Source of the DNA: Nitrospira sp.
GTDB taxonomy: Bacteria > Nitrospirota > Nitrospiria > Nitrospirales > Nitrospiraceae
Reading direction: 5' to 3'
Length of the DNA stretch: 64,000 nt
Assembly (NCBI GenBank): GCA_035252115.1
Contig: DATFDJ010000194.1
Coordinates: forward strand, 16,704 to 80,703
The notes below the pieces were generated by a model. The model worked only from the letters and a program-made list of their open reading frames with translations, ran no database searches and had not been told where the DNA came from. Positions 20,820 through 22,575 of the stretch are shown here, piece after piece. Positions within the stretch are counted from its first letter, which is position 1. The number at the start of each line of letters is the position of its first letter. Both the position numbers and the translations under genes were made by a program.

Positions 20820-21566
20820 CTACATGAACTTCATGAATTTTTCTTTGGCCTCGTCCATCACTTGAGCCGTAATCGTTGCGACGCCGCGTTCCTTCGCCAC
20901 GCGCTCAATTTCCTTTCGAGCCATGGGGCGAATGAAATCGGGAATGTTTTCAAGCCGCTGCTCCGCTTCGCGTGTCCACGTCATGCCATTGGGCGACTCG
21001 TTTTTCGAGTCATCCATCACCTGCAATGTGATGGTGCGATATCCATGCTTCCTCGCATACGCTTCGACGCTACTCTGCACCATGGGTTTGACGAACGCGG
21101 GGAGACGATCCAACTTGTCCTTGGCATCGGCCGACCAGGTAAACTCGGATGCCGCCTGACCCCCGTTCGCCGGCTTGCCGCTCGACGTGAGACCCATTTC
21201 AGCGACCATGGCCGAGAAGGGGCAGCCGCTGCTCGACTTCTCACCGGGTTTGGGACCTGACGAGGCCGTCGCCGGTTGACCACCTTGGATTTTTTCATTG
21301 AGATAGGCCGCCATCTGGCCGGAACCGGCTTGGGCCTCTTCCTTCAGCGTGCCTCTGGTCATTTCAAACGGTTCCGCTGCGGCGGTTCTCCCGCCCAGCT
21401 TGACGCCGAGGGAGCTGACCATCTGCGTTTCCCCCGGATTGGTCACCATGGAAAATTTGGCGCCGCAAGAAGGACAGCCGAAGAAGACGCCGAGCGACCC
21501 TTCTCCAGGCTTCTCGACCTTCTCAAAGTTCATGTAGGTTTCGCAGTTGAGACACACGAATTTCAT
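20820..21566 (-). CDS. CxxC...CxxC domain + two PCP_red repeats
   Basis: CLNC...CPSC N-terminus, GCPF linker, two WT/SxxAxxRL..P.F..P units. Confidence 0.85.
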   Translation of the reverse strand: MKFVCLNCETYMNFEKVEKPGEGSLGVFFGCPSCGAKFSMVTNPGETQMVSSLGVKLGGRTAAAEPFEMTRGTLKEEAQAGSGQMAAYLNEKIQGGQPATASSGPKPGEKSSSGCPFSAMVAEMGLTSSGKPANGGQAASEFTWSADAKDKLDRLPAFVKPMVQSSVEAYARKHGYRTITLQVMDDSKNESPNGMTWTREAEQRLENIPDFIRPMARKEIERVAKERGVATITAQVMDEAKEKFMKFM

Positions 21567-21587
21567 GGCAGCTCCTCTCGGGTCGGC

Positions 21588-22508
21588 TTACAACTTGGCG
21601 GCAAGGACTTTCTTGTAGTCCAGTAATGTTCGGATCCGTCCCGCGATTTCCTGATAGCGCTGAATCGTGGGGTATTGTTCGTCGAGCAGCGGTTCTCCCT
21701 TGTCGAACGTGCGCGCCAACTTTCGGTCGAAGGGGATACGCCCCAACAACGGCAGGTCCAGCGCCTCGCACATCGCTTCCGTATTGCCCTCGAACAACTC
21801 GTTTTGCTCGCCACAGGACGGGCACCGGTATTCGCTCATGTTCTCGACGATTCCGAGCACTTTGATTCCCATGTCACGGGCATAGGTGACGGACTTCTGC
21901 ACCACATCGGAAGCCACTTCCGACGGCGTGGTCACCACGATGGCGCCGGCAAGGTCCGGAATGAAGCCGGCGATCACGGGAGGTTTGTCGGCTGCTGCGC
22001 CCGGAGGCAGATCGGCCAGTAGATAGTCCAGCTCGCCCCATGCCACGTCGGCCAAAAATTCTCTGATGACGTTCATTTCCATCAGCCCAAGCCATACCGG
22101 GCTGACATCCATGGGGCCTTTCCATCTGACCGGTGAGGCCGCATCTAAAAAGAAATCCATCGAGGCGACTTTGATGCCTAACGGTCCAGTAGGAGGAATG
22201 GCTCCTTCCTGCGTCATCGTCAGCGACCGACCGTGTAGACCGAGCATACGCGGGACGCAAGGACCGTTTAAGTCCACGTCCAGTAAGCCGACCCGCGCAT
22301 GTTGCCGTGCAAAGGCGAGAGCCAGATTTACGGTTGTCATGCTCTTGCCGACGCCGCCTTTGCCGCTCATCACGACCAGCTTATGCTTGATGCCGGCCAT
22401 GCGGGCCTGAACCTGCCGCACTTGGTCCGTGATTTGCTCAACGACCTTGGCGTCATCCGAATACCGGAGCTTGCCGAGAATCGATCTGAGGTCTTTATCA
22501 GGCGGCAT
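21588..22508 (-). CDS. mrp: Mrp/ApbC/NBP35 family Fe-S carrier ATPase
   Basis: GKGGVGKS deviant Walker A; WKGPM, DLPPG, ENMS and CPSC motifs. Confidence 0.92.
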   Translation of the reverse strand: MPPDKDLRSILGKLRYSDDAKVVEQITDQVRQVQARMAGIKHKLVVMSGKGGVGKSMTTVNLALAFARQHARVGLLDVDLNGPCVPRMLGLHGRSLTMTQEGAIPPTGPLGIKVASMDFFLDAASPVRWKGPMDVSPVWLGLMEMNVIREFLADVAWGELDYLLADLPPGAAADKPPVIAGFIPDLAGAIVVTTPSEVASDVVQKSVTYARDMGIKVLGIVENMSEYRCPSCGEQNELFEGNTEAMCEALDLPLLGRIPFDRKLARTFDKGEPLLDEQYPTIQRYQEIAGRIRTLLDYKKVLAAKL

Positions 22509-22545
22509 GCAGACCCTCTCCATTTTCCTCAATTGAAGAGAAAAC

Positions 22546-22575
22546 ACGGTAACACAGCGATTTCTTGAGAGTCAA
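22546..22575 (-). promoter_or_regulatory. sigma70 promoter for mrp-PCP_red
   Basis: TTGACT-N18-TACCGT with TGn extension. Confidence 0.55.

Follow-up and report, generated by a model that had tools for sequence, protein, structure and literature searches.

A two-gene unit of Nitrospira pairs an Mrp/NBP35-type ATPase with a zinc-ribbon/PCP_red protein, its probable partner

[quoted passage not shown] The known carriers of this family (ApbC, Nbp35/Cfd1, HCF101 and MrpORP; PMC6345978) occur as several paralogues in a genome, each with a different operon setting, and no dedicated small partner gene has been described for them. Here we analyse a two-gene unit at positions 20820-22575 of a 64,000-nucleotide (nt) stretch of DNA (the window; contig C194 of genome G000), the proteins of which have close homologues bearing Nitrospira names. 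The unit and all its features lie on the minus strand, where an Mrp/NBP35 ATPase gene is followed by the gene for a 248-amino-acid (aa) protein with a zinc ribbon and two PCP_red domains, which we call PCPzr. The same Pfam family and three-helix fold are found at the C-terminus of subunit B (BchB/ChlB) of the chlorophyll enzyme DPOR, which works with the SIMIBI ATPase BchL/ChlL, and in two proteins in which PCP_red stands alone, 2KRU and 2L09. Small partner proteins also serve other SIMIBI nucleoside triphosphatases (NTPases), as in the pairs HypA-HypB, MinE-MinD, UreE-UreG and NB-protein-BchL. The mrp-PCPzr linkage is real, though not universal, and PCPzr is probably the working partner of the linked Mrp, with which it would interact.

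The first gene of the unit (21588..22508) encodes a 306-aa P-loop ATPase of the Mrp/NBP35 type (PF10609, E = 9.5e-75) that carries both family signatures, the deviant Walker A motif SGKGGVGKS and a CPSC motif. The listed open reading frame (ORF; 21588-22547) begins at GTG 22547; translation most probably starts at ATG 22508 instead, since homologues are 304-307 aa long and a start at GTG 22547 would overlap the -10 element of the promoter. The linked Mrp shares the deviant Walker A and CXXC motifs with the known carriers, but it has neither the DUF59/MIP18 N-domain of the ApbC type, nor the Di-Nase C-domain of MrpORP, nor the N-terminal Cys cluster of Nbp35, and it begins with a distinct helical extension of ~45 aa. 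Its scores also fall below the equivalog cut-offs. Membership in MrpORP (NF041136) was rejected at 260.9 bits versus a cut-off of 450, with only profile positions 2-249 of 365 matched, as was membership in ApbC (NF008669) at 173.8 bits versus 348, the match starting at profile position 98. The CxxC motif, a putative cluster-binding site, stands at the same place in 21 of 21 PCPzr-linked Mrps.

Genome G000 has three Mrp paralogues, and the PCPzr-linked copy scores lowest of them against PF10609. In a tree, the 21 PCPzr-linked Mrps split from the genome's two other paralogues with support of 99/97 and fell into two main clades that match those of the PCPzr tree. These sequence data are supportive, though not conclusive, of the linked Mrps being a distinct subfamily apart from the other paralogues. 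The latter are encoded on contigs C216 (9241-9966) and C129 (4956-5693), neither of which gave a PCP_red match in a whole-genome search; one of the two proteins has a Cys-rich N-terminal start (MWACAICDENESC...).

The second gene (20820..21566) encodes PCPzr, in which a zinc ribbon is followed by a linker with a CPF motif and by two PCP_red domains. The earlier note on this DNA had picked out an Mrp, a 21-bp gap, a CLNC...CPSC region, a GCPF motif and two PCP_red repeats, and each of these elements was found in its place. The call of PF08369 passed clearly, at E = 1.4e-33 and 115 bits versus a gathering cut-off of 32.5, over two stretches of the protein. The first PCP_red domain spans residues ~143-190 (20997..21140; pLDDT ~86-93 in the AlphaFold2 model) and the second residues ~195-243 (20838..20984; best PF08369 stretch 197-241), the latter with sequence matches to 2kru_A and 2l09_A. 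Both are modelled as three-helix modules (pLDDT ~81-94, against a mean of 75 for the whole protein), and Foldseek matched their fold to 2KRU and 2L09 with probability 1.00, a root-mean-square deviation (rmsd) of 1.0-1.6 and TM(target) of 0.70-0.74. A DNA-binding fold for PCP_red was rejected, since Foldseek showed no more than a weak similarity to lid subdomains of the AAA+ type (E above 0.3). So was an identity of PCPzr with BchB/ChlB (TIGR01278), since only the last ~60 profile positions matched, at 80.7 bits versus a cut-off of 490. Unlike BchB/ChlB, PCPzr has no nitrogenase-like catalytic core, it carries PCP_red in two copies joined to a zinc ribbon, and its host organism is non-phototrophic.

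The N-terminal four-Cys domain of PCPzr (residues 1-60; 21387..21566) contains Cys5, Cys8, Cys31 and Cys34, the CLNC...CPSC region, all invariant in alignments A1 and A6; equally invariant in both is a TNPxETQ motif in the helix that follows the four-Cys region. In the AlphaFold2 model residues 1-50 form three strands (13-18, 25-30 and 37-42) and a helix with pLDDT ~82-92, and Foldseek matched the domain to the zinc ribbon of NrdR over 42 columns (rmsd 2.3, probability 0.99). The model thus places two CxxC knuckles on a three-stranded sheet, the arrangement of a zinc ribbon. The suggestion that this domain receives or relays a cluster is not supported by such an NrdR-like model, and a structural metal site appears at least as likely. 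The invariant cysteine of the linker, which the earlier note underrated, is a better candidate for chemistry. It is Cys115 of a Cys-Pro-Phe motif (21216..21224) within the consensus GxCPFS[AS][MV][VLI], invariant in alignment A6. The linker is predicted to be disordered (pLDDT <50), apart from a short helix in the model that has the motif at its N-terminal end. The family is large, with 904 clusters at 50% identity; of its members with a length of 150 aa or more, 370 of 381 carry the CPF motif, which most shorter forms lack. Alignment A1 offered no stretch conserved enough to serve as a scan query.

The two genes are separated by 21 nt between the mrp stop codon (TAA, 21588-21590) and the PCPzr ATG at 21566, and the gap contains the ribosome-binding site of PCPzr as read from the sequence, GAGAGGAG (21572..21579). 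A gap of about 20-36 nt was seen in 74 of 80 Nitrospira loci. Since a consensus scan of the locus had called neither a promoter nor a terminator, we turned to phylogenetic footprinting for the former and to folding for the latter. When the spacer between cysNC and mrp was aligned across 35 Nitrospira loci, a single conserved block emerged, GTTTGACTC..AAA..GCTGTGyTACCGT, in an otherwise unalignable region. It coincides exactly with the promoter that had been proposed at 22546-22575 and comprises a -35 element TTGACT (22570-22575), an 18-nt spacer ending in TGT and a TGn-extended -10 element TACCGT (22546-22551). Downstream of PCPzr, where a terminator had been claimed at 20710-20744, folding of 20710..20745 gave an intrinsic terminator in which a 15-bp hairpin, GC-rich over an 11-bp core and closed by an ACAG loop, is followed by a U6 tract (dG -37 kcal/mol, z -4.67, with none of 200 shuffles folding as well). 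Because it has its own putative sigma-70-type promoter and its own strong predicted terminator, the unit is taken to be self-contained, with read-through from cysNC possible. The operon upstream reads SiR(+HEPN+TusA)-CysH-TrpD-like-CysD-CysNC, SiR being sulfite reductase, and a CC...CxxC motif is seen in the translation of its CysH.

PCPzr homologues and the mrp-PCPzr pair are found again in hundreds of genomes, which places the pairing far beyond chance. Mrp is followed by PCPzr in 80 of 80 Nitrospira genomes, the best 80 matches of a contig scan across genomes. More telling are the further Nitrospiria sampled, all of which retain the pair within wholly different flanks: Rrf2-TauE-AprA-like-Fer4-Sat in one type of distant locus, Rrf2-TauE-CysH-SiR/TusA-Sat in a second type, NifU_N in Manganitrophus, and, in another distant locus, none of the AprA-like, CysH-SiR or NifU_N flanks. 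A creatininase-family gene downstream of the pair is also found among these differing flanks. The two genes are adjacent in ten more Nitrospirota genomes (families coded f2-f4, f6-f9 and f16). In clade B1, which comprises distant short forms with one PCP_red domain, PCPzr is Mrp-adjacent in 12 of 12 loci, with 4-nt overlaps in some of them. Finally, in the 5'-truncated ORF of the representative protein P0270 the C-terminal half of Mrp runs straight into PCPzr (MKFLCVPC...) with no stop codon, an apparent fusion. Two to three changes of adjacency state on the PCPzr tree account for the entire pattern.

Our preferred explanation, in which our confidence comes close to even but falls short of it, is that the unit comprises a dedicated Mrp/NBP35-type [4Fe-4S] carrier ATPase and its cognate accessory protein, PCPzr. 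In its favour, the linked Mrp subfamily has stayed beside PCPzr through deep divergence and changing neighbourhoods, and in a gene string on metagenome contig L106 the pair is accompanied by two other PCP_red proteins, one of which is a radical-SAM/SPASM Fe-S enzyme. PCPzr would bind the Mrp dimer, and the three-helix PCP_red modules, of which there are two per chain in Nitrospiria and one in the short forms, would be the likely docking elements. The zinc ribbon might present a rigid interaction surface to a client or to Mrp, and the cysteine of the flexible GxCPFS linker might reach the bridging cluster, where it could act as a transient extra ligand, as a hand-off residue or as a gate for ATP-dependent release. 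The recurrent neighbour genes suggest two groups of clients, namely, in Nitrospiria, the Fe-S enzymes that assimilate sulfate and, in the short-form clade, a radical-SAM/bd-like-oxidase cluster. PCPzr would then stand to Mrp as the small partner proteins do to other SIMIBI NTPases. Its likeness to HypA-HypB, MinE-MinD and UreE-UreG is that of a small zinc-site protein with a separate ligand motif beside a dimeric, metal-delivering SIMIBI NTPase; however, no sequence or fold relationship of PCPzr to HypA or MinE was found, and the cargo would be an Fe-S cluster rather than Ni.

Several observations weigh against this explanation. The Nitrospiraceae neighbourhood is wholly syntenic, so that the 80 of 80 genomes amount to a single observation and lend no independent weight to the linkage; the Mrp tree is anchored by two outgroup paralogues only; and the ORF of P0270 may be a frameshift artefact rather than a natural fusion. 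Conservation of the link to mrp, on which the idea of a functional module leans, stood in part. It holds through the turnover of flanks, is accompanied by translational coupling and the apparent fusion, and involves a seemingly distinct Mrp subfamily, but it is missing from the soil clades B2 and B3 (~70% GC; ORFs called with a GC3-based caller), in which Mrp adjacency is 0 of 39, and from the divergent 127-143-aa forms of other Nitrospirota. In the B2 and B3 loci PCPzr, unlinked to Mrp, nonetheless retains the CPF motif and lies between a gene for an unknown protein of ~100 aa and genes for HU, Peptidase_S11 and HAD proteins. At L217:3404-5400, in another Nitrospirota family, one divergent form, a 127-aa zinc-ribbon-PCP_red protein, directly follows a B12-binding radical-SAM gene. 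The roles given above to the zinc ribbon and the CPF cysteine, moreover, are conjecture. Side observations on the same loci are that a one-PCP_red PCPzr with HU, D-Ala-D-Ala carboxypeptidase and HAD hydrolase genes alongside is found at L160:5616-8330 and in ~40 similar loci of soil metagenomes, and that at L217 a gene that looks LeuD-like by eye comes after the 127-aa protein, with no Mrp nearby.

PCPzr is one of a fixed set of PCP_red proteins. Each of the Nitrospiria genomes sampled encodes about five, with 10-13 PCP_red domains in total, and G000 encodes five including PCPzr. Its other four are a NirJ2/AhbD-like radical-SAM/SPASM enzyme with a PCP_red tail (C232:184-1569; TIGR04055 1.2e-94, TIGR04545 8.9e-91), a protein with two universal stress protein (USP) domains followed by PCP_red, a rubredoxin-like domain and a second PCP_red (C223:7263-9083) beside an slr0320-like B12 radical-SAM gene, a 163-aa protein with a zinc ribbon and two PCP_red domains (C2:3867-4358) just upstream of a bd-like oxidase gene, and a protein with four PCP_red domains (window 5861-6859) after ihfB. 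A PCP_red gene thus adjoins a gene of the HU/IHF family in two lineages, once with the soil-clade PCPzr and once with the four-PCP_red protein of the window. On contig L106 (1438-11400) a single same-strand string holds genes for a USP-PCP_red-rubredoxin protein, a radical-SAM/SPASM-PCP_red enzyme, a 130-aa unknown, Mrp and PCPzr, together with subunit I of a cytochrome bd-like oxidase and two cytochrome c proteins; this string resembles a gene cluster for bd-like oxidase biogenesis. In eight Nitrospirota loci (L233-L240) a USP-PCP_red gene adjoins a radical-SAM-PCP_red gene; a bd-like oxidase lies within ~4 kb in three of them (L234-L236), and in two others (L237 and L238) the radical-SAM enzyme appears to continue into a region of four PCP_red domains.

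These proteins bear on the broader proposal of the earlier note, that PCP_red is a general docking or activating module for SIMIBI ATPases. Such generality is not supported: none of the four other PCP_red proteins of G000 has a SIMIBI ATPase alongside, Mrp is in none of the eight loci with USP-PCP_red and radical-SAM-PCP_red genes, and 61 Nitrospirota genomes have PCP_red while PCPzr is absent. The set as a whole fits a shared interaction module, whose common partner could be an ATPase, a tetrapyrrole or other PCP_red domains. A version of the docking idea in which PCP_red is a portable tag for SIMIBI ATPases of the NifH, BchL and Mrp kind, and the PCP_red proteins are the client and adaptor set of a dedicated Mrp, seems unlikely to us. 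BchB, the NirJ2/AhbD-like radical-SAM enzyme and the USP-rubredoxin, four-PCP_red and zinc-ribbon proteins would all recruit their ATPase through PCP_red, for the insertion of a cluster or the delivery of electrons, and the roughly five PCP_red proteins of Nitrospiria would serve the bd-like oxidase and the enzymes of sulfur assimilation.

DPOR is a system in which a PCP_red protein works with a SIMIBI ATPase. Among DPOR chains, Foldseek found the PCP_red fold in 2ynm_D alone, a chain of the L-bound complex; the entries of NB-only DPOR contain PCP_red in sequence, but their fold was not matched, so that across the PDB PCP_red is modelled as isolated domains and in the L-protein-bound DPOR 2YNM only. 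This is compatible with an ordering of PCP_red upon L-protein binding, without being proof of it. It is also the one indirect hint at the contact between PCP_red and the L-protein put forward in the earlier note, which is otherwise not supported. The PCP_red stretch of BchB covers residues 473-523, and the helix of BchB that contacts protochlorophyllide in trans covers residues 398-420 (PMC12022308), upstream of PCP_red. The DPOR literature covered says nothing of subunit B residues 470-525 and describes no role of PCP_red in DPOR, and a literature search gave no relevant mention of PF08369 or PCP_red.

The position of this helix tells against a second way of reading PCPzr, namely as a carrier, sensor or lid for a tetrapyrrole, with PCP_red and the Cys-Pro motif binding or sensing siroheme or haem, or a macrocycle related to them, and with Mrp as the source of [4Fe-4S] clusters; the two would act jointly in the maturation of siroheme-[4Fe-4S] sulfite reductase or in haem support of the bd-like oxidase. 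Most partners of PCP_red seen here are indeed linked to tetrapyrroles. They include BchB/ChlB, the NirJ2/AhbD-like radical-SAM enzyme fused to PCP_red, B12-binding radical-SAM enzymes that adjoin PCP_red proteins, genes for the bd-like oxidase and for cytochrome c that neighbour PCPzr or another PCP_red protein, and, in Nitrospiria, operons for siroheme sulfite reductase upstream. The same partners are also Fe-S proteins, however, and the theme therefore does not separate this reading from that of a cluster carrier and its accessory protein. In haem-regulatory motifs a hydrophobic residue comes after Cys-Pro, within a disordered segment. The CPF motif has this form and may serve as a lead, but the likeness is one of sequence only and the GxCPFS context is specific to the PCPzr family. 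A Haem_oxygenas_2/TENA gene lies downstream in seven loci, but it is haem-oxygenase-like in name only, that family including non-haem di-iron enzymes. Nor does the four-PCP_red protein have a Cys or an obvious ligand, and the gene kept most strictly beside PCPzr is that of Mrp, not of a tetrapyrrole enzyme. We regard a tetrapyrrole role for PCPzr as doubtful, though still a serious rival reading. The Haem_oxygenas_2/TENA-family (di-iron oxidase-like) genes themselves encode proteins of 230-232 aa and follow PCPzr in Nitrospiria loci outside Nitrospiraceae (L096:6765-7457, L098:7730-8428, L100:7729-8427 and L226-L229).

Direct partnership may also be absent altogether. PCPzr would in that case be a general small regulator or adaptor, possibly associated with nucleic acid or the nucleoid or binding other PCP_red domains, that in some lineages merely shares a transcript with mrp. 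PCPzr stands beside HU and not Mrp in the largest sampled clades, the four-PCP_red protein of the window comes after ihfB, the N-domain resembles the zinc ribbon of a repressor, NrdR, and the fixed Nitrospiria set of PCP_red proteins would suit a network in which like binds like. Against this, 4-nt overlaps, an apparent fusion and parallel trees amid differing flanks are not what hitch-hiking would lead one to expect, the Mrp beside PCPzr is a separate paralogue and not the housekeeping one, and the top Foldseek matches for the PCP_red pair contain no DNA-binding fold. We find such independence quite unlikely. Very improbable, finally, is a thiol redox or sulfur-transfer element, in which the CPF cysteine would be a persulfide carrier or an oxidation sensor, linking the cys pathway's supply of sulfur to the assembly of clusters on Mrp: three types of sulfate-activation/reduction genes recur upstream, a TusA domain closes the sulfite reductases of these operons, the CPF cysteine marks the N-terminal end of a predicted helix and one source names the family member P0409 'TusA-related sulfurtransferase/RpoP', but Manganitrophus, several Nitrospiria families and every short-form clade lack the linkage to cys genes, the motif is CPFS and not the CPxP of TusA, and PCPzr has no TusA or rhodanese fold.

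Two neighbours of the unit deserve mention in their own right. The sulfite reductase of the window (27324-29804, minus strand) has C-terminal HEPN (weak, 2.4e-05) and TusA (6.5e-15) domains, and the fusion of SiR to TusA is found also in L100. Past the terminator, 19909-20682 on the minus strand encodes a 257-aa membrane protein whose N-terminal region is rich in His (HETVSHGESHH...HAPESHGHQ) and which has more His motifs close to its transmembrane helices. It is present in ~60 of the 80 Nitrospira loci and matches no Pfam family above threshold; it may handle metals.

It is not yet understood how Mrp/NBP35 proteins select clients or what they gain from hydrolysing ATP (PMC6345978), and a conserved, genetically coupled partner protein would give a handle on both questions. 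PCPzr would also offer a first testable role for PCP_red outside photosynthesis, which matters for a domain that occurs 10-13 times in every Nitrospiria genome sampled and for Nitrospira as key nitrifiers. The neighbour genes tie the pair to the bd-like terminal oxidase cluster of Nitrospira and to the maturation of Fe-S and siroheme enzymes in sulfate assimilation, two poorly understood parts of its biology to which the dedicated Mrp and PCPzr may contribute.

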